In this document: one piece after another, positions 2,012-62,895 of the stretch
Numbering within the stretch: the stretch's first letter is position 1
How the letters are laid out: each line of letters starts with the position of its first letter
Assembly (NCBI GenBank): GCA_965221695.1
Contig: OZ244905.1
Coordinates: forward strand, 1,280,001-1,344,000
Direction: 5' to 3'
Source of the DNA: Gammaproteobacteria bacterium
GTDB taxonomy: Bacteria > Pseudomonadota > Gammaproteobacteria > Eutrophobiales > Eutrophobiaceae
Length of the DNA: 64,000 nt
Notes under the pieces: generated by a model
The model's database searches: none
What the model was told of the DNA's origin: nothing
Seen by the model: the letters and a program-made list of their open reading frames with translations, nothing else
Program-made: the position numbers and the translations under genes

Positions 2012-2043
2012 TTAGGAGTCTCTGATCAAATCAGAGATTCCCT
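2012..2043. repeat. degenerate hairpin-1 end of repeat family A
   Basis: ttaggagtctctga-tcaaa-tcagagattccct resembles taaggaacctctga-ttaag-tcagaggttcct. Confidence 0.6.
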
Positions 2044-2048
2044 CAGTG

Positions 2049-3341
2049 TCAACCCCGCGCATCAGCGAAAACCACTCGGGCCAGCAGAGAATAACATAAT
2101 GCGGCGCTTAACATGGAGTCGAATGCAGATACAGTCGTCAAGGTAATATAGCCCTGCACGCTTGCGATACCCACCAGGAACCCTGCTCCCCAGGCCAGGA
2201 ACGCCGGGATATTATAGGCTGGGAGTAACGCAAGCTTCTCAGCCGTGTAGTTTTGCTTGTTGACAATAAAAAAGTCACAGATATAGATGCCGCAAAGACT
2301 CGGAATACAGATTCCCAACACGCTGATATACGGAATAAAGAAAGTCACGATGTCAAATACCGACAGCAATGTGGCCAGGACGCCAAACAACGCTGCGCTC
2401 CACCAGAACTTTATCCGCTTCATGGAGGCGGCTACCGACAAGCCGGCCGAATAAAGCATCCCTACATTGCTGGACACCGTGGAAAAAACCAGTACCACTA
2501 ACGCGCCCACACCGATACCTAGGGAAAGCATGATTTTGATCAAGTCCTGTTCTCCGGACAGTACGCTGGGTATCGCGGTAACCGTCAACACAGTTGGAAA
2601 TGAAATGCCCAATGCCAGGTAAACTGCGATAAGCGCCCGCCTTTCGTGGCGCGCATAGCGCAAGTAATCAGGCAAAGTGACAATACCGCCGCTGTAAGCG
2701 CCAATCACAATTGACATTGCGCCGCCGACACCCAACGTGCCGGCGCCGGCGCCGTACAATCCCTCGATATTGCCCGCTGCCAACGCCTTGTATGCGCCAT
2801 ACAACAGGATGGCTGCGAGTATCGGCACCACCAGCAAAGCCATTTTCTCTATTGCATGGAAGCCGTAGATAGTAATCCCCACCATCAGCAACCCGCCGCT
2901 TACGGCAAGCCAGTGCGCGGATATATCCGCGCCGGTAACGATGGAGACTATCTCCCGGGTCGCTGCGCCAAACAGGTTGCACAGTATCGCAAACCAGAAA
3001 AACATCACCAGCGCTATCAGGATATTGGCAAAGCGATAGCCGCTGGCGCCGAATGAATAACGAAGTATCAGGTAGGTCGACAACTTGGAACGTGTGCCTA
3101 CCATAGCGGCCAACACCCCGGTGACCGCCAACACCTGGCAACCCAGAATAAAACCGACCACACCAGGATAGAACCCCGCGCCCTCGCTGATTTTTGATGC
3201 CATCAAAAACCCCGGAACTGCGATGGTGCCGCCGATAATGATGACGGCAATACGATAGGCGCTGGCGCGATCATTTTCCGGCACAGGCTGGTGGGAATAA
3301 TCGTCGCCAGGGTAGAACCTGGAACCGGAACCCGCAGTCAA
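2049..3341 (-). CDS. NCS1/CodB-like purine-cytosine permease
   Basis: About 12 TM segments, PDYLRYAR motif, GIYICDFF, AFLAWGAG. Confidence 0.85.
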   Translation of the reverse strand: MTAGSGSRFYPGDDYSHQPVPENDRASAYRIAVIIIGGTIAVPGFLMASKISEGAGFYPGVVGFILGCQVLAVTGVLAAMVGTRSKLSTYLILRYSFGASGYRFANILIALVMFFWFAILCNLFGAATREIVSIVTGADISAHWLAVSGGLLMVGITIYGFHAIEKMALLVVPILAAILLYGAYKALAAGNIEGLYGAGAGTLGVGGAMSIVIGAYSGGIVTLPDYLRYARHERRALIAVYLALGISFPTVLTVTAIPSVLSGEQDLIKIMLSLGIGVGALVVLVFSTVSSNVGMLYSAGLSVAASMKRIKFWWSAALFGVLATLLSVFDIVTFFIPYISVLGICIPSLCGIYICDFFIVNKQNYTAEKLALLPAYNIPAFLAWGAGFLVGIASVQGYITLTTVSAFDSMLSAALCYSLLARVVFADARG

Positions 3342-5041
3342 CGCTTTCTCAATCCGGCAGTGGCTTTTGCGTCCACCGCGTTGTCTCTTATCACAACCTT
3401 GTAAACCTGCTCCGCTGCCTGTATGGACACATAACCATCCAGGACATCGTCAAGCACGCATTGCGGATCGCGTTCAGTGGCCAGGCCATAACCACCCCCG
3501 CCGGCGGAAATACTGATAACCTGATCCCCCACCGCAACAGCAGTCCTGTATGTGCCCACCGTCCTAGCTTTTTCCGTGCCCGGGAACAGATTGAATGCGT
3601 TGGGTTCCGGACTGAGACCACCCGCCAAGGCCCAAGGGCGTGTTTTACTTTTCTTGGTGATCGACAAAAAATGCCCCGGCCAGACAAACCGGATATCCCT
3701 GTGTATTCCCAGCCCGCCCCGGTATTTCCCGGCTCCGCCACTGTCGCAGCGCAATTCTACCCGCTCAAACTGCATGCCTGTTTTTGCTTCGAGCGCCTCG
3801 ATTGGCGTGTTACGCACCATGGTGGTTGAAACATGGTTCAACGCATTGGCGCCGTCATGATCGGCCGCCGCGCCCCAGCCGACGGGCTCATTATTGCTTA
3901 GCGCATAAGGCCGGCCGCTATTTGCGTCATTACCGTACATCATAAACCCGGGCACATCGCCGCCGGAACAAGCGGCGATACGCGCCGGCAAGGCTTTTGC
4001 CAGCGCTTTGAATATGAGTTCCAACGCTACCATGGCCGACCACAACGTATAGGTGGCAGCCGGATAAACAGCATGAAACAGGTTTCCCGGCGGGGCGATT
4101 ACCTCGAGTGGACGGAAACAACCGGCATTGCTCGGATGCGTGGGCGCCGTCAAGATTTTCAGGGCCACTTTACAAACGGTCTGGGTCAAGCCGTAAGGAA
4201 TATTGACAGGCCCGGTTACCGCATCCGGGGAGTCGCTGAAGTCCACGATAAACCTTTCATCTTCGACACTCACCCTGACACGCAGCGGAATAATATCATC
4301 GTTTATTCCATCATCATCTATCAGGTCCTCGGCCTCCCAGGTACCGTTGGGTATACTCAACAATGCCTTCCTCGTCACCCTCTCACCATAGTCAAGGATC
4401 CCGGCTATAGCCTGCTCCAGGGCTTGCTTGCCGAATTTAGCCCGTATCTGTCGCAAACGCCTGATCCCTGCTTGTGAAGCCGCCACTTGTGCGTCCAGGT
4501 CGCCGAGGACATTTTCAGGCAGGCGGGAATTAAAACGAATAATGTCCAGCATTTCCTTATCCGGTTTGCCCCGTTTATACACCTTGACAGCCGGCAGGAT
4601 TAAACCTTCCTGGTGCATATCAGTAGAATCAAGCACATAACCCGGGTCTTTGGCGCCCAGGTCCAGCCAATGGGCGCGAATACAGGTAAATGCGAAAGGC
4701 TTATCCTCGCCCTCATCAAAGACGGGGGCAAACAGGGCCACATCAGCCACATGCGCTGAGCTCCAGTAAGGATAATTCAATACGATGATATCCCCGGGTT
4801 CCATGTTCTCCAGGCCGATACGTTCGCAGCCCTTTTTAACGGCATAATCATTTGCTCCGAGAAAGAAAGCGAGTCCGGGCGCATCGGCGATCAACTCCAA
4901 TTCGCAGTTGTAGATGGAGATGCCAAAATCGAGCACTTCGTAAATGACCGGACTGAAGGCCGTGCGTATCAGCGTGCGCCGCATTTCTTCAGCCGCCGAA
5001 TTAAGATAACTGTGAATTACGCCAATTGTTGAGCTATCCAT
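3338..5041 (-). CDS. hydantoinase B / 5-oxoprolinase beta subunit
   Basis: RTAFSPVIYEVLDF, HWLDLG, DSGGAGKYRGGLG, GGGGYG; overlaps both neighbours. Confidence 0.92.
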   Translation of the reverse strand: MDSSTIGVIHSYLNSAAEEMRRTLIRTAFSPVIYEVLDFGISIYNCELELIADAPGLAFFLGANDYAVKKGCERIGLENMEPGDIIVLNYPYWSSAHVADVALFAPVFDEGEDKPFAFTCIRAHWLDLGAKDPGYVLDSTDMHQEGLILPAVKVYKRGKPDKEMLDIIRFNSRLPENVLGDLDAQVAASQAGIRRLRQIRAKFGKQALEQAIAGILDYGERVTRKALLSIPNGTWEAEDLIDDDGINDDIIPLRVRVSVEDERFIVDFSDSPDAVTGPVNIPYGLTQTVCKVALKILTAPTHPSNAGCFRPLEVIAPPGNLFHAVYPAATYTLWSAMVALELIFKALAKALPARIAACSGGDVPGFMMYGNDANSGRPYALSNNEPVGWGAAADHDGANALNHVSTTMVRNTPIEALEAKTGMQFERVELRCDSGGAGKYRGGLGIHRDIRFVWPGHFLSITKKSKTRPWALAGGLSPEPNAFNLFPGTEKARTVGTYRTAVAVGDQVISISAGGGGYGLATERDPQCVLDDVLDGYVSIQAAEQVYKVVIRDNAVDAKATAGLRKR

Positions 5042-7088: not shown

Positions 7089-8345
7089 TTACCGATCATC
7101 CCTGATCACAGTTCCACCTTGCATGACAAAAAATATGTTTCTCAAGTTGCCGAGGTCGTCAACAGGATTTCCTGGCGTGGCGATAAAGTCGGCCCTGGCT
7201 CCGGGTTTGATGACGCCAAGGCTGTCATCATTCAGCAGCTTCGCCGCATTCACGGTCGCAGTCTGGAGCGCCTGTAACGGACTCAATCCGACATCCAGGT
7301 AATGTTCCAGTTCACGAATCCCAACGGGTATCCCGTCATCAATATCGCCCGGTGGGATATCCGTTCCGCTTACCAGGGTAACCCCTGCGTCCACAGCGTT
7401 TTTTATACTCTGCAAGTGATCGGAAGAAGCGGACATTGCCTTGCAGATAGTCCATTTCTCGAAACCATGCTCTTGCATCCAGTCTTTGGAACGGGTCACA
7501 CTGAGTGTAGGCACGATAAACGCATCAGCTTCTTTGAGCGCTGCGGCTGCCGACTTGTCCAGGTTGTATGCATGTTCAAAACAGCGCACGCCGGCCTTCA
7601 GCCCGGCCATAATCGGTTCGGAGTCGCCGGCATGGGCGCATACATAGGTGCCCTTGCTCCGGGCAACCTCGACCGTGGCTCGAATTTCTTCAGCGGACAT
7701 TTGCGCTTCGGAGAACGTTTCGTCCTTGTGAGCGATGCCGCCGGTCAGGAATATCTTGATATGGTTTGCGCCCGCCAGCAGGTCAAGCCGGCACTTCTTC
7801 CGAAAATCATCCGCCCCATCCGCTTCGGCGGTAAACCCATGACCATGGCCCCCACTCACGGAAACCCCTAGACCGGCAGAAAAAATGCGCGGGCCGGTCA
7901 CCCAACCGGCGCCAATTGACTTGCGCAATGCAATATCGGCGCGGTTCAACTCGCCCACCGTGCGCACCGTGGTAATACCGGCCTGCAATGCATCCTGTCC
8001 CCTGCGATAAGCGCGATAGGCGGACAGGGCCGGATCCTCATTGGGATCACTCAAATGAAACGGGAAGATAATCGTCAGGTGGGTATGACAACTGATCAAG
8101 CCGGGCAAGAGATACGCGCCGCGCATGTTGATAATCGCGGAGTTACCGCTTTCGTCTGCTGCGCTATCGACGGCCATAATCCTGCCGTCGGCCAGTGTAA
8201 CCGCGGCCGCACGAACATGCCCGCTCTGCACATCAACAACGCGACAATTATTAAGGATGGTCGTCAAGGCAAGATAGACCCGCACGCATTTTTCAGTATT
8301 GGTAAAAGTATATCCATTTGACGAAATTGCCTTAACTGATACCAA
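7089..8345 (-). CDS. metal-dependent amidohydrolase (Xaa-Pro dipeptidase-like); start uncertain, possibly TTG at 8267
   Basis: PGLISCHTH (HxH), GITTVR, KIFLTGG, AHA, EHA, GTD, G.RAD motifs. Confidence 0.85.
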   Translation of the reverse strand: MVSVKAISSNGYTFTNTEKCVRVYLALTTILNNCRVVDVQSGHVRAAAVTLADGRIMAVDSAADESGNSAIINMRGAYLLPGLISCHTHLTIIFPFHLSDPNEDPALSAYRAYRRGQDALQAGITTVRTVGELNRADIALRKSIGAGWVTGPRIFSAGLGVSVSGGHGHGFTAEADGADDFRKKCRLDLLAGANHIKIFLTGGIAHKDETFSEAQMSAEEIRATVEVARSKGTYVCAHAGDSEPIMAGLKAGVRCFEHAYNLDKSAAAALKEADAFIVPTLSVTRSKDWMQEHGFEKWTICKAMSASSDHLQSIKNAVDAGVTLVSGTDIPPGDIDDGIPVGIRELEHYLDVGLSPLQALQTATVNAAKLLNDDSLGVIKPGARADFIATPGNPVDDLGNLRNIFFVMQGGTVIRDDR

Positions 8346-8533: not shown

Positions 8534-10624
8534 ATGTATTTAAGCAACAACGTATCACAACTTTTCCTGTTCAAATTCCCGCGCATGGGACAACTGCTTA
8601 CGCTGGTTTTTCTCATTTGCATGCTTGCGCCTCCGGTTCCGGTCAAGGCCCAAACCGGTCTGGTCATTGAAGAAATTGTCGTCACCTCCAGAAAACGTGA
8701 AGAAAACCTGCGAGACATTCCCGATTCGCTGACCGTCTTCAGCGATACTGTCATCGAAAGGGCAAATATCACCAGCATTCGCGATTTTGCCGATTTAACA
8801 CCCAACCTGACAATCATCGACCAACTCCGTCCCGGCACCCAGACCATGACGATACGAGGGATGACTACTGTGCAGAACGGTGAATTGCCGGTTGCGTTTA
8901 TTGTCGATGGGGTCAATGCGCCCTCGATGAATTTCATCAACCAGGAATTGGTTGATATCGAGCGTATCGAAGTATTGCGCGGGCCCCAGGGCACCTTGTA
9001 TGGCCGCGGCGCGGTAGGCGGGGCAATCAACATTATTACCAAATCACCGTCAGATGATTTGGAGATCAAGGCTAAAGCATCCTATGGCCGTGGCGATGCG
9101 CTGTTTGCCGGCGCCACGGTGTCTGCGCCACTCAGCGAGACTATGCGCCTGCGGGTCTCAGCCAGCCACCGGGATGAAGACGGACTGATCGATAATGTCG
9201 GCGCGGGAACCGAAGCCGATCCGATCAACGAGCAATCAGTCCAGGGCCGGCTTACTTTCCAGCCAACGGACAAGCTCTCCTTTGACCTGCGCGGCCGTTA
9301 CCTGAACGGTGATGCCGGGGGCATCTACCTGGTCACGATTACCACCGATCAAATTGACGACTTCTCCATACCCGTCAGCAGCAACCTGAATGGCGAAGAC
9401 GAGCGCACGATAGGCTCCACCTCACTGAAGATCGATTATACCTTTGATAACGGCATCACACTGACATCGATCAGCGCCTACAATGAAACGGACTCCTACT
9501 TTTTCGGCGATGGCGACTTCTCCACCGCCACCTTGTTTGCCCAATGGTGGGAAATCGATGTCGAAGCCTTTAACCAGGAATTGCGGTTGACATCCGCCGG
9601 CGATAGCTCTTTGCGCTGGATTCTGGGCGGCTTTTACCAGGACAGGGAAGACAAGGAATTTACCGATTTTGGCCTTGAAGCGCCGGGACCATCGGTAATT
9701 CCATTTCCGGGTGGCTCCAGGGAAGTCCGGGATAGAGAATCATGGGCAGTTTTCGGACAGGTAGACTACGACATCACCGAACAACTGGCATTGTCAGCAG
9801 GCCTGCGTTACGACGAGGAGGACAATACAACTGATCTCGGCCAGTTGGGAATTACCCCGAGTAAAACCTTTAACGAGTGGCAACCAAAGGTCTCGCTATC
9901 GTATGACTGGAATGAAAACCTGATGACTTATTTCACCTTTGCCCGCGGTTTTCGTCCGGGTGGTTTTTCAAACAGTTCAGGCGTGCTTTATGAAAACGAA
10001 GTATCCGATAACTTTGAGATTGGCGCCAAGGCTTTCATGCTGGACTCGCGCGTGCAATTATCCGCTGCGGTGTTCTATATCGACTTTAACGATCAGCAGC
10101 ATTTCTTTTCCCGCGTCACGCCAGCCGGGGTGCAACGTTTTATCATCAATATTGCGGAGACCACCAATATCGGCGCCGAGGTGGAATTGGCCTTAAGAGT
10201 GGTTGAGGGGCTGGATTTGAACTTCGGTTTTGGTCTGACCGACACTGAAATAGACGATTTTGACGGTTCCGGAATGTTTGAGGGCAATAACACGCCACAG
10301 GTCAATAACTTTTCGATCAATGCCTCAGCCCAATACACAAAACCTGTCTCCGGTCCCTGGCAACTGGTCGGACGGCTGGATTATGAACATCGCGGCGAAG
10401 TCGACTGGGACCTGAACAACTATGTGACGACACCGAGCAAGAACTACCTCAACTTGTACGCGGCAATTGAGAATGCTAACTGGTCGTTGTTCGTCTTCGG
10501 AAAAAACGTTCTGGATGAGCAACAACCGACAGCAATGGGAACCGATGTATTCGGCCCCGGCATCCATCTGAGAACGCCAAGCAGGCCAGCGTCCTACGGG
10601 GTCGGGATAAAAGCGGATTATTAG
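8534..10624 (+). CDS. TonB-dependent receptor
   Basis: Signal peptide, EEIVVTSRKRE TonB box, IEVLRGPQGTLYG plug, C-terminal aromatic residue; GGAGG RBS. Confidence 0.93.
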   Translation: MYLSNNVSQLFLFKFPRMGQLLTLVFLICMLAPPVPVKAQTGLVIEEIVVTSRKREENLRDIPDSLTVFSDTVIERANITSIRDFADLTPNLTIIDQLRPGTQTMTIRGMTTVQNGELPVAFIVDGVNAPSMNFINQELVDIERIEVLRGPQGTLYGRGAVGGAINIITKSPSDDLEIKAKASYGRGDALFAGATVSAPLSETMRLRVSASHRDEDGLIDNVGAGTEADPINEQSVQGRLTFQPTDKLSFDLRGRYLNGDAGGIYLVTITTDQIDDFSIPVSSNLNGEDERTIGSTSLKIDYTFDNGITLTSISAYNETDSYFFGDGDFSTATLFAQWWEIDVEAFNQELRLTSAGDSSLRWILGGFYQDREDKEFTDFGLEAPGPSVIPFPGGSREVRDRESWAVFGQVDYDITEQLALSAGLRYDEEDNTTDLGQLGITPSKTFNEWQPKVSLSYDWNENLMTYFTFARGFRPGGFSNSSGVLYENEVSDNFEIGAKAFMLDSRVQLSAAVFYIDFNDQQHFFSRVTPAGVQRFIINIAETTNIGAEVELALRVVEGLDLNFGFGLTDTEIDDFDGSGMFEGNNTPQVNNFSINASAQYTKPVSGPWQLVGRLDYEHRGEVDWDLNNYVTTPSKNYLNLYAAIENANWSLFVFGKNVLDEQQPTAMGTDVFGPGIHLRTPSRPASYGVGIKADY

Positions 10625-10717
10625 TCCAGCCCGGACTTCTCACAAGTTCGCGAGCCCGGATGGCGCCCAAGCGGCGACAGGAGGCCTTTAGCCCGGCTTT
10701 ATCCATAAGCTTTCATC

Positions 10718-10802
10718 ATTTTACCCCTACTTTTTACGTTTTTCTCGTATTTTTACCCTTACTTTTTACATTATTATATGTTATTTTGCCCCTACTTTAT
10801 AC
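10718..10802. promoter_or_regulatory. three 20-bp direct repeats (TTTTACCCCTACTTTTTAC-like) at 32-33 bp period upstream of the ATPase gene
   Basis: Copies at 10718, 10750 and 10783. Confidence 0.6.
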
Positions 10803-10866
10803 ATAAAGACTTGGCTGGCCGAAATAGCACGGCTATTGGAAAACTGATTGCTACTAATAAAACCGG

Positions 10867-12231
10867 ATGTACCGAACACACCTGGAACATATCTATGACT
10901 GGGCAACGCGCAAGACGCGCAAGCCGCTTATTATTCGCGGCGCCCGGCAAGTCGGTAAAACCACACTGGTCAGGTTGGCCTGCGAACGGTTAAATCTGTC
11001 ATTAGTTGAATTAAATCTCGAAGACCAGCACGACTTTATCAAGCTGCTGCCACAAAACGACCCGCACAAGGTTTTGCAGGCGATTGCACTGGCTGATAAC
11101 CTGCCAACTCTTGAACCCGACAAACACCTGATATTTTTTGATGAAGCTCAGGCTTGTCCCAGGCTGATCCCGTTCCTGCGATATTGCTTTGAGAGAGCGC
11201 CCGAATATCGCATCATACTTACCGGTTCCTTACTTGAGTTCGTTCTACGCGCACAAAATTTTTCCTTCCCTGTTGGTCGTGTTGAGTTTCTCTACCTGGG
11301 GCCGATGACCTTCGAGGAATATCTTGGCGGTATCGGCAAGCAGGTGTTGGCAGAGCGTATAGGAGGGTTCAGCCTAACCGAACCACCTGACGAGGCTGAA
11401 CACAGCCTGTTAATGAAAGAGCTACGCTTGTTCCTGATCATCGGGGGAATGCCGGAGGCCATCAATACATTTCGTGACACGGCTTCTTTTCTGGAGGTTG
11501 AACGTTGTAAGCAGGGAATTATCACTGCTTACCAGGCGGATTTCTACAAGTACCGGGGCGCGACCGAGGTGGAACTGGTGAACCGGGTATTTGCCAGCAT
11601 TCCGTTGCAAATTGGTGAAAAAACCAAATATACGCGCCTGGTGCAAGGGCAGCGGAGTGAAAAAGTAAAACATATTGTGGATCTGCTTGAACTCGCCCGG
11701 GTAATTCAGCGCTGTTACCACAGCCATGCTGATGGTCTGCCCCTGTCTGCGCAACAAAAAACCAACTTCTTCAAACTGTTGTTTCTTGATGTCGGGCTGG
11801 TCCAATCCATGCTGGGCGTATCCCTGGCGATGATAGAGTCCACCGGAGAGATCAATGAAATAGCAAAAGGTTGTCTCGCCGAGCAGTTCATAGGCCAGCA
11901 CCTGGCCTATGATGGCCCCGCGTTCCAAGCGCCGACAATCCACTATTGGGAGCGGCAGTCCAAGCACAGTGTTGCAGAAGTGGACTTCCTGGTCGCCTGG
12001 CAACAGGAAGCCTTACCCGTGGAAGTCAAAAGCGGGCATAAGGGCCATATGAAATCATTACAGCAATTCATTGCCGAGAAACGGGCGTCCCATGCCCTGC
12101 GCTTCTCTTCAGGACCGCTAATGGTCAGAGACTACAAACACGCATCCCGCCCTTTGGCTTATCGCTTCCTGAACATCCCCCCCTACCTGGTCAGCCGCTG
12201 GCGCCTTCTTGCCAATACCGCTTTTTCCTGA
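10867..12231 (+). CDS. AAA_14 ATPase with DUF4143 (PD-(D/E)XK-like) C-terminal domain
   Basis: GARQVGKT, FFDEAQ, GGMPE, DVGL, EVDF..PVEVKSG. Confidence 0.9.
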   Translation: MYRTHLEHIYDWATRKTRKPLIIRGARQVGKTTLVRLACERLNLSLVELNLEDQHDFIKLLPQNDPHKVLQAIALADNLPTLEPDKHLIFFDEAQACPRLIPFLRYCFERAPEYRIILTGSLLEFVLRAQNFSFPVGRVEFLYLGPMTFEEYLGGIGKQVLAERIGGFSLTEPPDEAEHSLLMKELRLFLIIGGMPEAINTFRDTASFLEVERCKQGIITAYQADFYKYRGATEVELVNRVFASIPLQIGEKTKYTRLVQGQRSEKVKHIVDLLELARVIQRCYHSHADGLPLSAQQKTNFFKLLFLDVGLVQSMLGVSLAMIESTGEINEIAKGCLAEQFIGQHLAYDGPAFQAPTIHYWERQSKHSVAEVDFLVAWQQEALPVEVKSGHKGHMKSLQQFIAEKRASHALRFSSGPLMVRDYKHASRPLAYRFLNIPPYLVSRWRLLANTAFS

Positions 12232-12402
12232 TTTTACAAGCGCGCCTTCAAGTTCGCATCGAATGTTGGACAGAACTGCGGGTAACACAGGATGATACGG
12301 TGCAGCTACTGGGTCATTATTTATTTCCTCTTCTTTATTCCTATCACGATCTTCGTGTATGATATACGGTGTCAATGAATAAATGACGTGAGGGGTTCAG
12401 CA

Positions 12403-13779
12403 ATGCATAAATTGATTTTTTTATTCGCCTTGTCATTGGCTTTCGTGTTATCTGGATGCGGCAACAATAGTGAAACCAGGCCAGAACTCGTAGAACCGGA
12501 GGTCGGACCGGAACCTGAGCCAGAACCGGAACCCGAGCCGGAGCCTGAACCCGAGCCGGAACCGGAACCCGAGCCGGAACCGGAGCCCGAGCCTGAACCC
12601 GAACCGGAGCCGGAACCCGAACCGGAACCAGAACCCGAACCGGAACCGGAACCCGAACCGGAGCCTGAACCCGAGCCGGAGCCTGAACCCGAACCGGAGC
12701 CGGAACCGGAACCCGAACCGGAGCCGGAGCCTGAACCCGAACCGGAGCCTGAACCCGAACCGGAGCCGGAACCCGAACCGGAGCCGGAACCCGAGCCGGA
12801 GCCTGAACCCGAGCCGGAGCCCGAGCCGGAACCGGAACCGGAGCCGGAACCCACGGCTAATTTTCCTGACATCGAATGGGCTTTGGATGCTGACCAAACC
12901 AGCGCAGCTTTAGGCGGGTCGGCGCTTGAGTTGAGTAACGATGAGGTAAAAACAGCTATCTCTGAAATTTCAGATAACTCTAATGCTTTGATTATCAGCA
13001 GTCTGGGCGTGCTTCTCGTCGATGACGATGATGACTTTATCGATTACAACTGTTCTGGCGACACCTGCGCGCCGGACCCTGACAGCAGTGATTTTGCGCA
13101 ATTTTCACCGGATATCACTCTAGACAGTTACGATTTTGAGACGCCTGATAACCAGGGTGTAATGGTCTACGGAGGCATTTCCTTTGCCCAGTTCCGTGTA
13201 GAAGGCGAATCTCAGCCGATAGTCGGCGCTAGTGAGAATCTCAGCTACGGTGGCTGGCTTGACCATCACTTTTTTGGAATTGAAGCCCGCTTTTTCAACA
13301 CCACTGAAGACTATGATCAGGTATCCCTGTACAGCTATTCATTCGGCGATTCCAGCGGCAGTAACCCTGCATCCGGCAGCAGTAAATGGAGCGGCGCTGC
13401 CATCGGCTTCAACGGGGCTGAAGAGTTCCAGAACCGCAGCCTGCTCACTGCTGATGTCACGGTATCCATTGAGGACTTCATGAATCCAATGATTGACGTC
13501 ATGTTCGACAATATCAAAGACCTCAGTACCGGCGATGCTTTTACTGTAATGGGCATTCCAATATCCTCTGTAAGTTGGGATGATGTTGAACTCATGGACG
13601 ACGGCTCTTTTGACAGGTTGGAAAATGGAGATAAAGAGCGCACAGACTTCTCTAATGATCAAGAGTTACGGAGCCGGATAGCAGGTCAATTTTACGGGCC
13701 TAATCACGAGGAGGTCGGCGGTATATTCGAGTACGCCACGATAGGCGGTTCATTCGGCGCCAAGCGTGATGCTGAATAA
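12403..13779 (+). CDS. surface lipoprotein: lipobox, (EP)57 linker, TbpB-like C-terminal barrel (Slam substrate)
   Basis: [18 protein letters not shown]|C; C-terminus [15 protein letters not shown]...GSFGAKR; RBS GAGGGG before ATG 12403. Confidence 0.85.
12511..12852 (+). repeat. coding Glu-Pro hexamer repeat, 57 units
   Basis: 342 nt of GAR-CCN with mixed synonymous codons. Confidence 0.97.
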
Positions 13780-13785
13780 GTTAAC

Positions 13786-13813
13786 CGGGGGACGGATTTA
13801 AATCCGTTCCTCG
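13786..13813. repeat. REP-like palindrome between lipoprotein and Slam genes
   Basis: cgggggacggattt|aaatccgttcctcg. Confidence 0.6.
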
Positions 13814-13821
13814 TTTAAATT

Positions 13822-13869
13822 ACAGGAAGCTCGGAACAACTCCTGGATGGACTTGTTCAGAGCTTCTGT
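13822..13869. repeat. hairpin-5 fragment of repeat family A; contains the predicted Slam ATG
   Basis: ggatggacttgttcagag is identical to the family A end. Confidence 0.7.
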
Positions 13870-15316
13870 TGGGTCCCATCACCACCAATTCAGACCAGCC
13901 GGGGTTAATTCTGTCCGTATTTTACTTTTTGTCTGTCTTCTGTTCCTGAGCTGTGCCTGGACAGCCTCGGCACAAGCGCAGTATGACCGCGCCACAGGCG
14001 ATACAAGGACCGACTCAACTGACCAACTGCCCTTGTTGGATGCAGGCAAGGCCATGGACCTGGCCCGCAAGTGGATGGATGAAGGGAAACCGCAACAGGC
14101 GTTCGAGTTGTTACGCCACATAATACAGGCCGCAAAGGCGGAAGGGGATATCGATACCATCAATATCCGGTTCCTGGCGGCTCAGGCCCTGCTGAAGATG
14201 GGACGACCGGTCCATGCGGCCGTAATCCTGGGTCAATTGGCCGTGGAGCGACCGGAATTGAACCGGGTGCGCCTCGATTATGCTGCCACACTGTTCACTC
14301 TGGGCCAGGACGAACAGGCTGAGACCATCTTCCGGGAACTGCGTGGCAAGAAAGACCTGCCGGCGCCGGTGCGGCGCAACGTGGAAGGCTTTCTGGAACG
14401 CATCCGCGCGCGCCAGCGGTTCCAGGTCAACTTCGATTTCGGCTTCTGGCGTGACAATAATGTCAATCACGCGCCGGAACAGGACACTGTGCAAGTGCCG
14501 CTGTTCGGCGGGTTGGAATTCGAGCTGGATGAACAAGCGGTCAAGGCCTGGGTGGCACGCGCCGGCCTGAACCTGCGCTGGCGTCACACTTACCTGCTGG
14601 ACGGGCGCGTCTTTTTCGAGACCCGCGGCGGCGCTGCTCGCAATACCGCAATCAATGCGGATGAGCATAACCGCACTTGGCTTACTTTGTCATCCGGGCC
14701 GCGCTGGCGCTACACCATAGATCTCGCGGGTCAGCGACGGGCCGGTCTTGCGCGCGCGGACATCGGCGCCGAGCGGCGTTGGCGTGGCGGCGATAACTAT
14801 GCCGTTAGCGGCTGGGCAAGACTGGGGCTGGAACAAAACCTGGGCAGAAACTGGACCGCCGGCGTCGCCGCCCGCGTGTGGGAGACGCGTTACGACAAAC
14901 TGGACAACGAGCTGGATCCGTTCGGTCAGTCTGTAGAATTAAGCCTTACCCGACGTCTGGGTCCTGGTTACCTGCAAGCCGGCGCCAAGCTGGCGCAAGA
15001 AATGACAGCCCGCAGCAACCTGCAATGGCAGGGCTGGGGAACATCGTTGGACTACATGATGTCGCTGGGTCAAAACTGGAATCTGAAAGCGCAAGCATAC
15101 ATTGATAAACGGTATTACGACGATATATACCCCTTGTTCGGCGAACGCCGCAAAGACCAGACACTGCTTGCCTACCTGACCATCTCCAACCGGGCGATAG
15201 CGCTGGCGGGGTACCTGCCTGAACTCACGCTGGGCTGGACCCGAACGGACTCGACTATCCCGCTGTACGACCGGAACAACCGGATTCTGATGTTGGGTCT
15301 ACGCCGACTCTTCTAA
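13847..15316 (+). CDS. surface lipoprotein assembly modifier (Slam; TPR + DUF560 beta-barrel)
   Basis: Signal peptide, TPR RVRLDYAATLF, DNNVNHAP, amphipathic strands, C-terminal Phe; adjacent TbpB-like lipoprotein. Confidence 0.85.
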   Translation: MDLFRASVGSHHHQFRPAGVNSVRILLFVCLLFLSCAWTASAQAQYDRATGDTRTDSTDQLPLLDAGKAMDLARKWMDEGKPQQAFELLRHIIQAAKAEGDIDTINIRFLAAQALLKMGRPVHAAVILGQLAVERPELNRVRLDYAATLFTLGQDEQAETIFRELRGKKDLPAPVRRNVEGFLERIRARQRFQVNFDFGFWRDNNVNHAPEQDTVQVPLFGGLEFELDEQAVKAWVARAGLNLRWRHTYLLDGRVFFETRGGAARNTAINADEHNRTWLTLSSGPRWRYTIDLAGQRRAGLARADIGAERRWRGGDNYAVSGWARLGLEQNLGRNWTAGVAARVWETRYDKLDNELDPFGQSVELSLTRRLGPGYLQAGAKLAQEMTARSNLQWQGWGTSLDYMMSLGQNWNLKAQAYIDKRYYDDIYPLFGERRKDQTLLAYLTISNRAIALAGYLPELTLGWTRTDSTIPLYDRNNRILMLGLRRLF

Positions 15317-15471
15317 GGAACCTCTGATTAAGTCAGAGGTTCCTACGATACAAGGATGTATCGTCAATATCAATGACTGTAAGGCATTGATATTGTGAGG
15401 AAAACAAAAATCGCATTTTTGTTTTCCGTACTCTGACAAGTCCAGGATGGACTTGTTCAGAGGTTCCCTAA
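15314..15471 (+). mobile_element. repeat family A, full 158-bp five-hairpin MITE-like element
   Basis: Terminal IR ggaacctctga/tcagaggttcc; five stem-loops; near-identical copies at 28381 and 62738. Confidence 0.9.
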
Positions 15472-15497
15472 ACTTACCAAGCCCCCCACACCCGACT

Positions 15498-18245: not shown

Positions 18246-18269
18246 CGCAGCAGCACAGCGCGCGTGCTC

Positions 18270-20015: not shown

Positions 20016-20144
20016 ATCTGTCTCCTCGGCTGTTGCGGATTGGCTTATTATCACCACCGGAAGACTGATAGTCCAATACTTTGTCGCATGCACCGGCGCT
20101 ATATACGAGCTGTTATGTTTAATAGAAGATCTAAACAAACCCAT

Positions 20145-20198
20145 CTTGGGATCGCAGGCGTTCCGCCTGCCTGCGGGCGGGACGCCCTCGCTCCCAGG
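20145..20198. repeat. REP-like palindrome family B (TGGGAGCGCGGGCGTCCCGCCCGC-type)
   Basis: Imperfect inverted repeat; related arms at 30729-30762 and 35455-35480. Confidence 0.7.
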
Positions 20199-20274
20199 GG
20201 GGCGGCCAGGTTTACAAGCGCCGCGCTTGGCTATAAACATAGTCTGTCTGCTGCGAACAGGGTAATATGACTTT

Positions 20275-21498: not shown

Positions 21499-21562
21499 TT
21501 GTATGAACATGTATATACAGGATGATTTTTCATCCTGTATATCCTTTTCATCCATATTAAAC
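21499..21562. repeat. palindrome between convergent genes (possible bidirectional terminator)
   Basis: atatacaggatga-tttt-tcatcctgtatat. Confidence 0.55.
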
Positions 21563-21566
21563 CATC

Positions 21567-22001
21567 TTACTTCTCAAGCTTATCCAGTAATCCCTCAAGC
21601 TGGGATTGCTCCTCGGCAGTCAGTACCGCTTTCAACTGCGCCTCGTAGGAAAGCGCCAGCGGAACGATCTGCGCATACATGCCGTAACCCGCAGCGGACA
21701 GGGACAGAATCGAACGGCGCCGGTCTGTTCCGGAAAACTCACGGTCGAGCAGGCCCTTGCCCAGCAGTTTCGTCACCGCCCGGCTGACCGGGACCTTGTC
21801 CATTTCTGTCTCATTACAAACTTCGTCGGCGGACAACCCCGGTTGCTGGCCGAGCACGGCCATTACCCGCCATTCGGGTATGCTCAGGTTGAACCGTTCC
21901 GAGTACAGCCGGGCAAACGACGCGCTGATCCGGTTGGTGACGATGGAAAGCCGATAAGGCAGGAATTCCTTCAGGTTAAAACCCGGGTTCTGATTTTTCA
22001 T
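21567..22001 (-). CDS. MarR-family regulator (homogentisate-pathway associated)
   Basis: FLPYRLS, PEWRVM, VSRAV, DRRRS. Confidence 0.9.
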   Translation of the reverse strand: MKNQNPGFNLKEFLPYRLSIVTNRISASFARLYSERFNLSIPEWRVMAVLGQQPGLSADEVCNETEMDKVPVSRAVTKLLGKGLLDREFSGTDRRRSILSLSAAGYGMYAQIVPLALSYEAQLKAVLTAEEQSQLEGLLDKLEK

Positions 22002-22034
22002 GCTGCTTTTCGAATCAAAATCGAAGGGGGCAGA

Positions 22035-22197
22035 CTAGTACTCTTTCCAGTCATTTCTAACGTGTTCAGCGGCCTGGGGCGATTGAGCGCAAGGCGCGCA
22101 GCGCAGGGAATGGTGCACTATTCTCTGCGGACTGCGCCTTGCCTTGGATCCACGGCTTCGCCCTGAACATGTCAGAAGCAACTTGAAAGGGTATTAG
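22035..22197. mobile_element. MITE-like element family C with about 35-bp imperfect terminal IRs
   Basis: ctagtactctttccagtcatttctaacgtgttcag versus reverse complement of right end ctaataccctttcaagttgcttctgacatgttcag. Confidence 0.7.
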
Positions 22198-26208: not shown

Positions 26209-26212
26209 ACTC

Positions 26213-49926: not shown

Positions 49927-50747
49927 TTCCGTCTCTCATAAGTCCGGTAACAACTGTTGCAAAAATCAAGCGCCTTGCTGTTGAAATCCTCCGCAAACTC
50001 GTGGAAGGAGAGATGCGCCGGCATGTAGTAGGTTGTTGCATTCGGTTGATTTTCGCTGATCCACTGCCCGGCTGCCGTTCTCCAGTCTTCGCGCACTACC
50101 TGCATTATCGGTATCTCTTTGTCGGTGCGGCGGGCAACTTCGCGGTAGTCCAGGTTAAAGCTGGTCCTGATCAGGTCGCAGGCGACAGCTTCCGGTGTCC
50201 TGGCGGCTGCATGCAGCATGTCCCGGACAAAGTCCGGGTCGGGCTTCTCTACGTAGCAATGGTAGAGGTAATCCTCAAAGAATTTCAAATGACCCATTTC
50301 GGTCAGCATCTCCAGGCTGGCCGTGAGTTCATCCGCTTCTCCTTCCCCCCAATCCGCAGCGCTGTCCTTCCTGATCTTCGGCGGCTCGTCAATGCTGATA
50401 AACCCGCGCACACCGGCAGTGCCGAACTGTTCAAAATATGAATACGCGGTGCAGACGCCGAAGGACCAGCCGGCTATCACACAATCGTCGAGTTCAAGGC
50501 GGTTGATGAATTCATGCAGGTCGGCGCCGTGCTGCATGAAATCGTTACCCGTGGCGGTTACGCCGGAATCGCCGTGGCTGCGTTGGTCGTAAGCCAGCGC
50601 CCGGTACCGCCCGGCGAAGGCCGGCAAGTTCCTGGCGAAGACCTTTGTCGTATAGGTCCAGCCCGGTATGAAAATGACCGGTTTGCCGGCGCCGTGTTCT
50701 AAATAAGCGAGCGTTAATTCATCGGATATATCCAAGCGCTTTTTCAT
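49923..50747 (-). CDS. alpha/beta hydrolase
   Basis: IPGW, DQRSHGDS, GWSFG nucleophile elbow, C-terminal His. Confidence 0.88.
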   Translation of the reverse strand: MKKRLDISDELTLAYLEHGAGKPVIFIPGWTYTTKVFARNLPAFAGRYRALAYDQRSHGDSGVTATGNDFMQHGADLHEFINRLELDDCVIAGWSFGVCTAYSYFEQFGTAGVRGFISIDEPPKIRKDSAADWGEGEADELTASLEMLTEMGHLKFFEDYLYHCYVEKPDPDFVRDMLHAAARTPEAVACDLIRTSFNLDYREVARRTDKEIPIMQVVREDWRTAAGQWISENQPNATTYYMPAHLSFHEFAEDFNSKALDFCNSCYRTYERRN

Positions 50748-50831
50748 AAGCCCGAAAATCTCACCAATTCGCTTGTTAGCATCGGATAGATGTTTGCTGT
50801 CATCGTATCAATTGGTGAGATATTCGGGCTA
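50748..50831 (-). mobile_element. MITE-like family D, short copy
   Basis: Terminal IR cccgaa(a/t)atctcaccaatt; homologous to both ends of 62186-62373. Confidence 0.8.
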
Positions 50832-54250: not shown

Positions 54251-55351
54251 TTAAGCACGCGCTTCCTGAACTCGGATGGACTCGACCCTGCTATCCTCCT
54301 GGCGCAATACGCCGCGGCGGAGTTGGTCTTGCTCTATGGACTCGAACAATGCCTGAAAATTGCCCTCGCCGAAACCTTCGTTGCCTTTGCGCTGGATGAT
54401 TTCAAAGAAAATCGGCCCTATCACGTTTTCGGTAAAGATCTGCAACAACAGACCCTTGCCTTCACCGGGCGCGCCGTCGATCAGTATATGGCGCTGCCTG
54501 AGCGCCTGCAGATCTTCTCTGTGGCCGGGCAAACGCTGGTCCACGCTTTCATAATATGTGTCCGGCGTGGTCTGGAATTCCACGCCGCGACAGCGTAAAG
54601 CGTCCACGGTCGCATAGATATCGTCCGTTGCCATCGCTATATGCTGTATGCCTTCCCCGCGGTATTCGCTCAGGTATTCCTCAATTTGTGATTTGTCGTC
54701 GGCGGACTCGTTGATCGGGATGCGTATTTTGCCGCAAGGGCTGACCATCGCGCGGCTTTTCAAGCCGGTCAGCCTGCCTTCTATATCGAAGTATTGCAAT
54801 TCCCTGAAGTTGAATAACTTTTGGTAGAAATCCGCCCACTTGTCCATATTGCCGCGGTGCACATTATGGGTAAGGTGGTCCACTGACGCGAGCCTGGTCT
54901 CCACGTTGCGCCGCTCGACGTCGAGCGGAACAAAATCCACATCGTAGATGGTCCTGTCCCCATATCGGTCAACCAGGTACAAGCGGCTGCCGCCGATACC
55001 GGCAAGCGCGGGGATATTCAATTCCATTGGCCCGGCCCGGGTCTCAACTGCTTGCGCGCCCAACTCGAGCGCGCTGGCATAGGCGCTGGCCGCGTCCCTG
55101 ACCCGAAATGCGACCGCACAAATGGACGGCCCGTGCTGTTCCGCAAAGCGCCGGGCAAAACTGTCCGGCTCGGCGTTGATAATAAAATTGATATCGCCCT
55201 GGGCGTGCAAGGTCACATTCTTGCTGCGATGTTGCGCAGTTGCGGGAAAGCCCATTGTTTCAAACAGGCGCCGCAGCAACGCCGGGTCGGGCGCGGTGTA
55301 TTCGATAAACTCAAACCCATCGGTACCCATGGGGTTATGCTTGTCAGCCAT
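54251..55351 (-). CDS. hppD: 4-hydroxyphenylpyruvate dioxygenase
   Basis: NPMGTDGFEF, DHLTHNV, GEGIQHIA, FFEIIQRKGNEGFGEGNF; start reset to MADKHN (AGGAGG RBS). Confidence 0.96.
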   Translation of the reverse strand: MADKHNPMGTDGFEFIEYTAPDPALLRRLFETMGFPATAQHRSKNVTLHAQGDINFIINAEPDSFARRFAEQHGPSICAVAFRVRDAASAYASALELGAQAVETRAGPMELNIPALAGIGGSRLYLVDRYGDRTIYDVDFVPLDVERRNVETRLASVDHLTHNVHRGNMDKWADFYQKLFNFRELQYFDIEGRLTGLKSRAMVSPCGKIRIPINESADDKSQIEEYLSEYRGEGIQHIAMATDDIYATVDALRCRGVEFQTTPDTYYESVDQRLPGHREDLQALRQRHILIDGAPGEGKGLLLQIFTENVIGPIFFEIIQRKGNEGFGEGNFQALFESIEQDQLRRGVLRQEDSRVESIRVQEARA

Positions 55352-55373
55352 GAGCATTCCTCCTGTTCTGAAA

Positions 55374-55420
55374 TAGTTGCTGTTGCAACAAATATTAGTT
55401 GCACGAACAACTTTTGTCAA
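55374..55420 (-). promoter_or_regulatory. hppD promoter with two MarR-type operator-like sites
   Basis: TTGACA-17-TAATAT on the minus strand; TAGTTGCTGTTGCAACAA (55374) and TAGTTGCACGAACAACTT (55396). Confidence 0.7.
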
Positions 55421-55480
55421 GCGCTTCGATGGAAGTCCGGGTCGTACTTCGCGCACGACCACGACGGGCGCGCTTGATTT

Positions 55481-57461: not shown

Positions 57462-57535
57462 ATGGGAAGCTCTGAACAAGTCCATCCTGGACTTGTCAGA
57501 GTACGGAACATCTGACTTAATCAGAGGTTCCTTAA
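57462..57535 (-). mobile_element. repeat family A, 74-bp internal-deletion copy (hairpins 5 and 1 only)
   Basis: 84 bp (hairpins 2-4) missing, joined at a GGAA microhomology. Confidence 0.85.
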
Positions 57536-57536
57536 G

Positions 57537-58526
57537 ATGGGGGTGATGAAGGATAAACGCATCCTGGCCGCCGGCGCCGGACGAATGGGCAGAGGCATTG
57601 CCCACATGTTCGCGTATGCCGGCTACCCGGTGGCGCTGCTTGACGTCAAGGACCGCGACGAGGACGGATTCAGCCAACTGGTTGATGCGGCGCTGGCTGA
57701 AATTGAGGCAAACCTGACGTTCCTGTCCGGGCTCGGCCACATCAGCCCTGCGCAGGTAAACAAGGTCCTCGACCTCATCGAGGTCAAACCCAAGGCAAGC
57801 GCGCCTACAGCGATAGGCGCGGCCGATGTCATCATCGAAGCGGTACCGGAGACCCTGGAAGCAAAAAAGCATGCGCTTGAACTGATAGGGGAACATGCCG
57901 GCGCCGATGCGATAACGACCTCGACCACCTCTTCCATGCTCGTGACTGAACTGCAACAGTGGGTGGCGCAACCGGAGCGGTTCCTGAACACACATTTTCT
58001 GAACCCTGCCTACCTTATTCCGCTGGTGGAGGTCAGCCCCGCTCCGGATACCGCGGAAAGTGTGACGCTGGATATCATTGCCCTGTTCGAATCCATCGGC
58101 AAGGCGCCGGTCAGGTGTGCGGCAGCGCCGGGTTATATCATCCCGCGCCTGCAATCGTTGCTGATGGCCGAAGCCTGCCGCATGGTGGAGGAAGGCGTGG
58201 CGACCCCGGCCGAGATCGACAAGGCTATTACCCACGGTTTCGGCCCGCGCTATGCCACCCTGGGCGTGATGGAATTCATCGACTGGGGCGGCGTCGATAT
58301 TCTCTACTATGCCGGCCACTACCTCTCAAAGGCGCTGGATTCCCCGCGCCATGCCCCACCGGAGGAAGTATCCAGGATGATGCAGGACGGGCGCAAGGGC
58401 ATGCGTGAAGGCCGTGGCTATTACGATTTCCGCGACATGGATGTGGATGCCTGGCAAAAGGAAAAGCTGACCCGGTTCGTCACCCTGCTGGGTAGCCTCG
58501 GTCAGATCCCGAAACCCGGAGTTTAA
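57537..58526 (+). CDS. 3-hydroxyacyl-CoA dehydrogenase family protein
   Basis: GAGRMGRGIA, EAVPE...K, STTSS, HFLNPAYLIPLVEV, PGYIIPRLQ. Confidence 0.88.
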   Translation: MGVMKDKRILAAGAGRMGRGIAHMFAYAGYPVALLDVKDRDEDGFSQLVDAALAEIEANLTFLSGLGHISPAQVNKVLDLIEVKPKASAPTAIGAADVIIEAVPETLEAKKHALELIGEHAGADAITTSTTSSMLVTELQQWVAQPERFLNTHFLNPAYLIPLVEVSPAPDTAESVTLDIIALFESIGKAPVRCAAAPGYIIPRLQSLLMAEACRMVEEGVATPAEIDKAITHGFGPRYATLGVMEFIDWGGVDILYYAGHYLSKALDSPRHAPPEEVSRMMQDGRKGMREGRGYYDFRDMDVDAWQKEKLTRFVTLLGSLGQIPKPGV

Positions 58527-62188: not shown

Positions 62189-62373
62189 CCCGAGTATCTC
62201 ACCAATTGATGCGATGATCGCTGAGGATTTTTTGACGCGCCCCATCCTTGGGGCGCTTCCTGAACGTATCAAGCGTAGTGTGTGATGGCAACATAGTCAA
62301 CAGATTACCATAACTCATTGACAGCAAACATTTATCCGATCGTAACAAGCGAATTGGTGGGATATTCGGGTTC
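62186..62373 (+). mobile_element. MITE-like family D, long copy between antitoxin and toxin
   Basis: Terminal IRs aacccgagtatctcaccaatt / aacccgaatatcccaccaatt (19/21). Confidence 0.8.
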
Positions 62374-62727
62374 ATGGTAACTTTACACATTACTGATAGA
62401 GCAGCGCTTGAAATCGAACAGGTTCAAGAATATACAAAACAACAATGGGGACAAGACCAGGCTGACAAATATATTGCGGATATAGACAGAATCCTGCAAA
62501 TGTTACAGGAATACCCTGATCTTTTGCAGACAAAGACTCAAATATCCCAATACTTGAAATTCTATGCCACCGGCAAACATATCCTGGTTTTTGAGAAAAT
62601 AAACGACGAAATTTATCTTATAACGGTTAAACACACGGCAATGGATTTAGACAGCCGGATGCCTGAGCTTGAACCCGTTCTTAAAGAGGAAGTGCGGGCG
62701 TTGCGCGCAAGATTACTCAAATTATGA
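62374..62727 (+). CDS. ParE/RelE-family toxin
   Basis: ITDRA..EIEQV.EYT.QQWGQDQADKY, KHILVF, VKHTAMD. Confidence 0.85.
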   Translation: MVTLHITDRAALEIEQVQEYTKQQWGQDQADKYIADIDRILQMLQEYPDLLQTKTQISQYLKFYATGKHILVFEKINDEIYLITVKHTAMDLDSRMPELEPVLKEEVRALRARLLKL

Positions 62728-62737
62728 CTCTTTCAAC

Positions 62738-62895
62738 TAAGGAAACTCTGAACAAGTCCATCCTGGACTTGTCAGAGCACGGAAAACAAAAATGCGATTT
62801 TTGTTTTCCTCACAAAATCAATGCCTTACAGTCATTGATTTTGACGATACATCCTTGTATCGTAGGAACCTCTGACTTAATCAGAGGTTCCCTAA
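62738..62895 (-). mobile_element. repeat family A, full 158-bp copy (reverse)
   Basis: Matches the 28381 copy; hairpin 3 carries a paired change (caaaatc/gattttg). Confidence 0.9.

Follow-up and report, generated by a model that had tools for sequence, protein, structure and literature searches.

An abundant five-hairpin repeat with IS5-type transposon ends and a conserved fold in gammaproteobacterial genomes

The stretch of 64,000 nucleotides studied here (the window; contig OZ244905.1 of the Gammaproteobacteria bacterium assembly GCA_965221695.1) contains a repeat built of five adjacent hairpins, H1 to H5, an architecture that recurs in dozens of gammaproteobacterial genomes. The family is very probably an IS5-type MITE (miniature inverted-repeat transposable element), i.e., a short transposon without a transposase gene of its own. 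Direct 4-bp target-site duplications and ends that match those of IS5-group insertion sequences (ISs) carry this identification. The hairpins have moreover kept their pairing between lineages while their sequences diverged, and on balance we favour selection on a single-stranded fold, most likely of RNA, as the cause.

Structure of the element

From one terminal repeat to the other the element body measures 151 bp (159 bp with flanks), contains no open reading frame (ORF) and is made up entirely of the five hairpins. The first-pass annotation had described a five-stem-loop repeat with terminal inverted repeats, and the sequence of the reference copy (at 15313) and of the other copies it claimed reads as described. 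The terminal inverted repeat is an 11-bp pair, GGAACCTCTGA ... TCAGAG(G/T/C)TTCC; with at most one mismatch, the window has 27 matches to GGAACCTCTGA where 0.69 would be expected, and none of 100 shuffles contained as many. At the H1 end the terminal repeat is followed by its own inverted copy, forming a palindrome. Folded as RNA, either strand of the reference copy gives the five hairpins. The top strand, by which we mean the H1-to-H5 direction, folds at −74.3 kcal/mol (z = −11.5), compared with −72.2 kcal/mol (z = −12.4) for the bottom strand, and in both cases none of 200 shuffles was as stable. Hairpins with a strict GGA loop are concentrated in the element as well: 11 of the 13 in the window lie within its copies, with 0.35 expected by shuffling, which speaks against such hairpins being common throughout this genome.

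Target duplications and IS5-group ends

Relatives were gathered by scanning genome contigs with the H1 palindrome (GGAACCTCTGA, 3–9 bases, TCAGAGGTTCC). This yielded at least 109 stretches (the loci, numbered with L below), with full 10-kb flanks for 80 of them; none overlaps unique DNA of the window. Since the pattern demands a perfect H1, the conservation of H1 in this sample is by design. Among the matches listed, H1 occurs 116 times, four of these being in the window and 112 in the loci. An adjacent H2 allowed 78 of these to be oriented, and 64 of the 78 have a recognisable right end. The carriers among the matches listed are named gammaproteobacterial isolates and metagenome-assembled genomes (MAGs) with a GC content of 37–70%, plus a few bins labelled otherwise, and include Thermomonas, Lysobacter, Rehaibacterium, Ahniella, Halothiobacillus, Acidiferrobacterales and Chromatiales; the closest copies among these matches belong to MAG CBDCSC01.

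Identical 4-bp flanks border 42 of the 64 copies with a right end, compared to 8.0 ± 2.4 (maximum 18 in 5000) when the right flanks are shuffled. Where the left flank is non-palindromic (n = 36), it is repeated directly in 20 copies and in inverted form in none; such duplications include CTAA, TTAG, AATA, ACAA, CAAG and TTCA. Such flanks are a genuine target-site duplication of 4 bp, rather than a continuation of the terminal inverted repeat. The 42 identical duplications follow the consensus YTAR (first position T 25, C 13, A 4; second T 37; third A 37; fourth A 32, G 10), and a YTAR target duplication is what an excerpt of PMC5009759 reports for IS5.

The ends of IS5A of E. coli K-12 are GGAAGGTGCGAATAAG and, at the transposase end, GGAAGGTGCGAACAAGTCC. 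Those of the element are GGAACCTCTGATTAAG on the H1 side and GGAA(A/C)CTCTGAACAAGTCC on the H5 side; they match the two E. coli ends over 15 of 19 and 12 of 16 bases and keep the difference between left and right in IS5 (TAAG versus CAAG). A BLAST search of the element against the PLSDB plasmids returned two matches, both at the end of an IS5-family IS on pA81 of Achromobacter xylosoxidans A8. This IS is 1198 bp long with a CTAG/CTAG duplication, and its left repeat, GGAACCTCTGAACAAGTCC, equals the element over 19 of 19 bases. An H5-like fold-back follows the repeat, and the start codon of the transposase lies about 75 nt further in. The transposase is recognised by the IS5-family model NF033581, as E. 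coli InsH is too, and is about 59% identical to the transposases of IS5 and ISKpn26 and 61% to those of ISXfu1 and IS1405. ISXfu1, from a Xanthomonas plasmid, has the left repeat GGAAACTCTGAACAAT, of which 15 of 16 bases match the element, and a CTAA/CTAA duplication. As the ends of the element match those of IS5-group ISs, H5 is the inherited transposase-proximal end of such an IS, and the top strand is antisense to the position of the former transposase gene.

Together, the 4-bp duplications and the IS5-group ends argue for a DDE transposase that acts in trans on double-stranded DNA, rather than for single-stranded DNA and an HUH enzyme. Mobilisation by a putative IS5-like DDE transposase, an enzyme unseen in this organism, is well supported by this anatomy. 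The first-pass annotation had proposed a non-autonomous mobile element, with no mobiliser in the window and with IS5-type transposases among the candidates. The terminal repeats, the direct duplications and the match of ends and YTAR duplication to the IS5 group bear this out, and scans of the window ORFs with NCBIfam and Pfam found no transposase and no HUH/RAYT enzyme. Its further suggestion, handling as structured single-stranded DNA, is contradicted by the variable direct duplications and by the IS5-group ends.

Autonomous long copies were sought in all loci as pairs of terminal repeats 600–3500 bp apart; the best two, L018 8761–10030 and L007 8465–10027, hold ordinary genes and no transposase. 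L034 (5100–5620) and L057 (1–500) have in common a conserved gene and the same tRNA, with a short form of the element upstream of the tRNA in the former and a full form downstream of it in the latter. These are independent insertions in one neighbourhood, and the spacers are too diverged for a precise empty site.

Conservation of the fold

An alignment was made of 51 of the 64 copies with a right end (145–156 bp long; 48 from loci and three from the window). The sequences of H2 to H5 vary widely with pairing kept; H2, for instance, occurs as ACGATAC/GTATCGT, GCGGCAC/GTGCCGC or GCCGGCC/GGCCGGC. RNAalifold recovers 36 pairs from this alignment, 23 of them with compensatory changes. Over a 55-pair structure, 90.8% of the cells are paired versus 76.4% after shuffling (none of 500 shuffles reaches the observed value), and 368 cells are changed on both sides versus 118.6 in shuffles. 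When the partners are slid by 1–3 columns, pairing falls to 36–49%.

Within the window the picture is different. Its near-identical copies mostly show single stem changes, of which about three to four break a pair and three to four give G:U, while one pair is compensated. The covariation therefore lies between lineages, and individual sites show no trace of repair. The fold had been proposed to be conserved or repaired: it is conserved, with compensatory changes, but nothing points to repair in place. Likewise, the paired change that had been noted in H3 of the copy at 62738 is real (AAAAT/ATTTT versus ATAT/ATAT). Yet the same state is found in the copy at 38780 and is the commoner one in other genomes, which makes it a variant of lineages rather than a local repair in the 62738 copy.

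On the top strand, G:U exceeds A:C by 62 to 20 cells in the best 61 rows of a model-fitted alignment. In a MAFFT alignment the numbers are 67 versus 49 cells, or 52 versus 32 clustered events (p = 0.038). This excess leans, modestly, towards a single-strand fold on the top strand.

Conserved loops

The loop of H2 with its closing pair reads C-A-N-G-G-A-N-G, with GGA in 49 of the 51 aligned copies, and that of H5 reads C-N-GGA-N-G, with GGA in 47 of 51. In both loops the motif of CsrA/RsmA hairpins, CA(N)GGA(N)G, is preserved. H2 of the window copies, AUACAAGGAUGU, fits the CsrA consensus from systematic evolution of ligands by exponential enrichment (SELEX), RUACARGGAUGU (given in an excerpt of PMC4347634), with GGA in the hairpin loop. 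In permissive Rfam scans of two copies, H2 aligns to a hairpin of RsmV (UACGAUACAAGGAUGUAUC versus UccGACACAgGGAUGUGUC) far below threshold, and hairpins of a 72-bp insert found in long copies align, also below threshold, to hairpins of RsmY and of the Xanthomonas RNA sX7. The thresholds of the Csr/Rsm clan (Rfam CL00106) are not reached, with 12–14.8 bits for RsmV against a gathering score of 100 and 12.4 bits against 57 for RsmY. Real binding of CsrA by the hairpins may occur but is doubtful.

The centre of H3 keeps TCAAT(C/G)AC...TTG. Of the 51 copies, 31 have the IHF-like motif TCAANNNNTTR on the bottom strand of H3, and 34 have it on either strand (2.5 expected on either strand); 13 of the 51 contain the full IHF core, WATCAANNNNTTR. 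The IHF core consensus used here is general background knowledge.

Genomic placement and modularity

Placement was analysed for 76 copies, i.e., 69 locus copies at about 61 bits or more and seven window copies, with copies cut by contig ends and weaker matches left out. All but one (75 of 76) lie outside long ORFs, the remaining copy being inside an ORF. Orientation relative to the flanking ORFs is random, with 34 sense and 39 antisense copies at 3' ends and 26 and 27 at 5' ends. The flanking genes are arranged in tandem in 32 cases, convergently in 15 and divergently in seven. In several copies the flanking tetramer holds the stop codon of the neighbouring gene, which fits YTAR as the target; TAA and TAG stop codons would then be frequent landing sites. 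A terminator scan of 13000–32900 flagged 16 terminator-like sites, none in the copies at 15313, 26927 and 28380, and T-runs are absent downstream of all the element's hairpins.

Hairpins had been proposed to be gained and lost as units, and both short and long forms are indeed found among the window and locus copies. Short forms (H1-H5 or H1-H2-H5, 75–90 bp) with different junctions occur in L008, L034, L054, L033, L058, L012 and in the window at 57461. In long forms, additional hairpins are found between H2 and H3, in the loop of H4 or in H5, some of those in L013 and L088 being in opposite orientation. Hairpins are indeed gained and lost in blocks, as it seems by deletion, nested insertion and duplication after insertion of the element.

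In two MAGs, another short palindromic module (CCCGTATCAAG...) is nested in H4 or H5 of some copies (L066 ~10100–10175, L011 ~10100–10140, L076 ~7900–7930) and appears to be a second family of very small repeats, inserting into the five-hairpin element. A crude class of solo H1 palindromes (n = 35) includes full copies with an imperfect H2. Collapse between two TCAGAGGTTCC direct repeats was considered as a source of solo H1, but only two of the 35 have identical flanks, both the palindromic TTAA, and we make no claim on their origin. Some solo H1 palindromes are followed by a run of T (L041 ~10001–10040, L104 ~301–340) and could be terminators there.

Copies in the window

A covariance-model scan, supplemented with BLAST for fragments, identified eight clear copies in the window (three full, two with a 72-bp insert, one 3'-truncated, one H1+H5 and one degenerate short form) and several fragments:

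15313–15471, plus strand: full copy, reference; 174.1 bits; body 15317–15467
15317–15343, 15345–15364, 15365–15395, 15399–15427 and 15431–15462, plus strand: H1, H2, H3, H4 and H5 of the reference copy
15313–15316 and 15468–15471: target-site duplication CTAA on the left and right of the reference copy, the right terminal repeat running to 15467
28380–28538, minus strand: full copy; 172.1 bits; flanks TTAA and TTAG
62737–62895, minus strand: full copy with H3 in the AAAAT/ATTTT form; 176.7 bits; target-site duplication TTAG/TTAG
36925–37155, minus strand: long form with a 72-bp insert between H2 and H3; 135.3 bits
56027–56257, plus strand: long form, its insert 95.7% identical to that of the 36925 copy; 122.8 bits
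38780–38887, plus strand: 3'-truncated, diverged copy with H1, H2, H3 and part of H4; 63.2 bits
57461–57535, minus strand: short form, H1 joined straight to H5; 51.2 bits
26927–27004, minus strand: degenerate short form with part of H1, an H2-like hairpin and H5; 35.5 bits
13825–13866 (model match 13781–13871), plus strand: H5-only fragment; 24.1 bits
2015–2041: solo H1-type palindrome, diverged, stem pairing kept via G-T wobble; 23.3 bits
26213–26250 (model match 26213–26247): solo H1-type palindrome with H2 remnants
23691–23739, minus strand: fragment found by BLAST, with the 3' arm of H1, H2 with a compensated stem (ACGGTAC/GTACCG) and the start of H3
32161–32175, plus strand: half of H1, i.e., TTAA and the left terminal repeat only

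A further 18-nt match, 45686–45703, lies inside an ORF and may be due to chance. The full, insert-bearing and deleted copies in the first-pass list of twelve were all recovered, while the fragment at 23691–23739 was missing from it; the copy at 38780, listed as a mere hairpin fragment, extends from H1 into H4.

The left duplication of the reference copy holds the stop codon of a Slam-like gene (13847–15316), and a flank of the 28380 copy that of the gene for CoA-transferase B (27727–28383). The 62737 copy lies 10 nt past an ORF for a ParE-type toxin (62374–62727), the 36925 copy abuts the 3' end of an indolepyruvate decarboxylase gene (37158–38777, minus strand), and the 26927 copy lies between the genes for a GST-type isomerase (26283–26930) and CoA-transferase A (27024–27722). 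The 56027 copy, between the genes for a MarR-type regulator and an octopine-dehydrogenase-like protein, has two uncompensated changes in H1. The 72-bp insert brings additional hairpins; two of these have a GGA loop, on the same strand as in H2 and H5. In the short form at 57461 the deletion junction lies at a TTCC microhomology, and its H1 end abuts the start (57537) of a 3-hydroxybutyryl-CoA dehydrogenase gene. The first ATG of that ORF is only 1–2 nt from the H1 end (57535–57546), so the terminal repeat (…AGAGG…) may supply the ribosome-binding site, unless the next ATG is the true start.

The window itself is gammaproteobacterial-looking chromosome with 53% GC, a tuf and tRNA cluster, many genes for TonB-dependent receptors and an aromatic amino-acid catabolism set. 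The latter (22232–28383 and 54251–55462) is a tyrosine/tryptophan breakdown set, with genes for homogentisate dioxygenase, kynureninase, fumarylacetoacetase, a GST-type isomerase, CoA-transferase A and B and 4-hydroxyphenylpyruvate dioxygenase; three copies of the element lie in its spacers. At 8534–15316, a TonB-dependent receptor gene is followed by a gene for a TbpB-like lipoprotein with acidic tandem repeats (12481–12852) and by one for Slam-type surface-lipoprotein assembly. A gene for a VapC (PIN) toxin is found at 34300–34728. A second small palindromic repeat with terminal inverted repeats of about 20 bp (CCCGAATATCTCACCAATTG) occurs at 50745–50830 and 62190–62372. The latter copy is broken by about 95 bp; this stretch contains an H2-like GGA hairpin (62237–62256, minus strand) and could be the remains of part of a five-hairpin element. 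Finally, a weak promoter-like match (TTGATA, 17 nt, TATCGT; 9/12) on the bottom strand of the element is directed outward through H1, at 15345–15373 (minus strand) and 28478–28506 (plus strand). It is tied to the H2 sequence of this lineage and is not conserved in other genomes.

Discussion

Taken together, these observations are best explained by an IS5-derived MITE that is mobilised in trans and whose fold is probably under selection, and we regard this explanation as likely. The copies would be moved by an IS5-like DDE transposase whose gene lies at another place in the genome; this enzyme would bind both terminal repeats on double-stranded DNA and make 4-bp staggered cuts at YTAR. The IHF-like core in H3 would bend the short 151-bp DNA so that the ends meet. 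Variants would arise in place after insertion, the short forms by deletions at microhomologies between hairpins and the long forms by insertion or duplication of extra hairpin modules. The element would be co-transcribed with neighbouring genes in either orientation, well-folded copies being tolerated or useful, and only lineages whose transcripts fold into compact stem-loops would go on spreading. Where the H1-to-H5 strand is transcribed, H2 and H5 may present CsrA/RsmA-type binding hairpins.

Several observations weigh against this explanation or parts of it. A tblastn search with E. coli InsH as its only query gave no match, either in the window or in the flanks fetched for the loci (1.28 Mb). 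The ISs with matching ends come from Achromobacter and Xanthomonas plasmids, the cognate IS being unseen in this organism. When all loci were compared with one another, 27 stretches of 700 bp or more proved to be shared, but no precise empty site emerged. The related copies were all picked by the perfect-H1 pattern, which biases the sample. As for the fold, both strands fold equally well, the excess of G:U is modest in the MAFFT alignment, which is not fitted to structure, and counts lack independence where copies are related. Template switching within the repeat is, moreover, a way for perfect palindromes to covary without selection. As for the loops, the H5-equivalent hairpin of the pA81 IS has no GGA loop, and some of the extra modules elsewhere (L013, L088) have theirs on the opposite strand. 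The random orientation argues against a strand-specific job of single insertions and so weakens the CsrA interpretation.

Among the other explanations, one is compatible with a MITE origin: the element could be a portable CsrA/RsmA-binding RNA module, its activity keeping fold and loops. Transcripts in the H1-to-H5 direction would show two GGA-loop hairpins (four in the long form) and would either recruit CsrA to neighbouring mRNAs or titrate it as RsmY, RsmZ and CsrB do. The constancy of GGA in H2 and H5 while the stems covary would follow from such a role, as would the fit of H2 to the SELEX consensus and its alignment to RsmV, the addition of two GGA-loop hairpins with weak RsmY and sX7 matches by the 72-bp insert, and the excess of G:U over A:C on the H1-to-H5 strand. 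In addition, RsmA-antagonist small RNAs (sRNAs) were unknown in xanthomonads according to an excerpt of a 2011 report (PMC3300014). However, orientation relative to genes is unbiased, a conserved promoter or terminator was not seen in the element, the Csr/Rsm matches in Rfam score 12–15 bits against gathering scores of 57–100, and some added modules carry the motif on the other strand. Overall, a module of this kind seems unlikely, if worth keeping in view.

The hairpins might also be DNA-level palindromes without an RNA role, their symmetry being maintained by template switching, by mismatch correction in replication hairpins or by two-fold protein sites (with IHF at H3 and the transposase at H1 and H5 as candidate proteins). 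That both strands fold equally well, that orientation is random, that the core of H3 is conserved with an IHF-like motif and that H1 and H5 are built of the terminal repeat and its inverted copy all fit such palindromes. Duplex or cruciform DNA, on the other hand, is not expected to show an excess of G:U over A:C on one strand. The loops are conserved asymmetrically, H2 and H5 each having GGA on one strand, and recent window copies hold uncorrected single mismatches. We consider palindromes of this type an unlikely explanation too.

It is improbable that the copies are kept as intrinsic terminators or stabilisers of mRNA 3' ends. Such a function would agree with the preference for 3' gene ends (73 versus 53 gene-end adjacencies), the low number of copies between divergent genes and the stability of the hairpins on either strand. 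Yet the T-runs of terminators are lacking and the terminator scan passed over all three copies that it covered, while a 3' preference is also predicted by YTAR targets in stop codons together with selection against promoter hits.

Finally, a REP/RAYT-like or IS200/IS605-like element, in which folded single-stranded DNA is processed by an HUH tyrosine transposase, would likewise be abundant, intergenic and almost wholly hairpins, but is highly improbable given the variable direct duplications, the true terminal inverted repeats, the match to IS5-group DDE elements and the absence of an HUH/RAYT gene among the window ORFs. To our knowledge, IS200/IS605 and REP/RAYT elements make no target duplications.

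Comparison with known systems underlines both the origin of the element and its peculiarities. With the IS5-group ISs (E. coli IS5, ISXfu1 and the pA81 IS) it shares ends of the form GGAA..T..GAA(C/T)AAG, the 4-bp YTAR duplication and a fold-back hairpin after the transposase-proximal repeat. It differs from them in being 151 bp long without a transposase, in its interior of H2–H4 hairpins, in the perfect terminal-repeat palindrome (H1) at the other end and in the GGA loop that H5 now has. The Correia elements of Neisseria (CREE/NEMIS) are similarly abundant intergenic MITEs of about 150 bp with an IHF site and no transposase nearby, and form co-transcribed RNA hairpins that affect mRNA processing (in part general knowledge, in part from an excerpt of PMC10969869); for the element described here, transcription would be the corresponding assumption. 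Correia elements nonetheless have no sequence likeness to it, have 26-bp terminal repeats that pair with each other, duplicate TA, are confined to Neisseria and lack the five separate covarying hairpins and the GGA loops. The BOX repeats of pneumococci and the ERIC and BIME repeats of enterobacteria are likewise modular, strongly folding repeats of variable units that are transcribed with neighbouring genes. They have other hosts and other sequences, and BOX and BIME are without clear IS5-type terminal repeats and YTAR duplications. CsrB, RsmY, RsmZ and RsmV resemble the element in having several short hairpins with an A(N)GGA loop closed by C-G, and H2 is nearly identical in form to the RsmV hairpin. 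Unlike these sRNAs, the element stays below the Rfam thresholds, has no promoter or terminator of its own, and is dispersed in many copies in both orientations with transposon ends.

The first-pass annotation had recognised no named family, and an Rfam 15 search of the whole window at gathering scores indeed returned four tRNAs only and no match to the element. A description of it was found neither in Rfam 15 nor in the literature searched on the topics of MITEs, IS5, CsrA and hairpin repeats, including the text of the terminal repeat, and an excerpt of a 2024 MITE review contains nothing similar. The element thus constitutes a real MITE family of IS5-group origin that was not found described in these sources.

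What is unusual is that the hairpins and their GGA loops are conserved over so long a range. MITEs are usually regarded as short-lived, species-bound debris of ISs, and the five-hairpin family departs from that image. Its architecture, compensatory changes and fixed loops across genomes of 37–70% GC point to selection beyond transposase binding. The family therefore offers a clean case for studying what keeps a MITE alive, be it the RNA fold, host tolerance or host use, and it is a concrete candidate for mobile CsrA/RsmA sites. It is conceivable, albeit unlikely, that the transposon wires new genes into the Csr/Rsm regulon when it lands in untranslated regions and that abundant, transcribed copies soak up the regulator. 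If so, the element could stand in for the RsmY/RsmZ-type antagonists reported missing in Xanthomonas-like gammaproteobacteria, and this would be why its fold and GGA loops have persisted across orders. Recognition of the family also avoids the annotation of its copies as sRNAs or terminators and accounts for the stop codons in their flanks.

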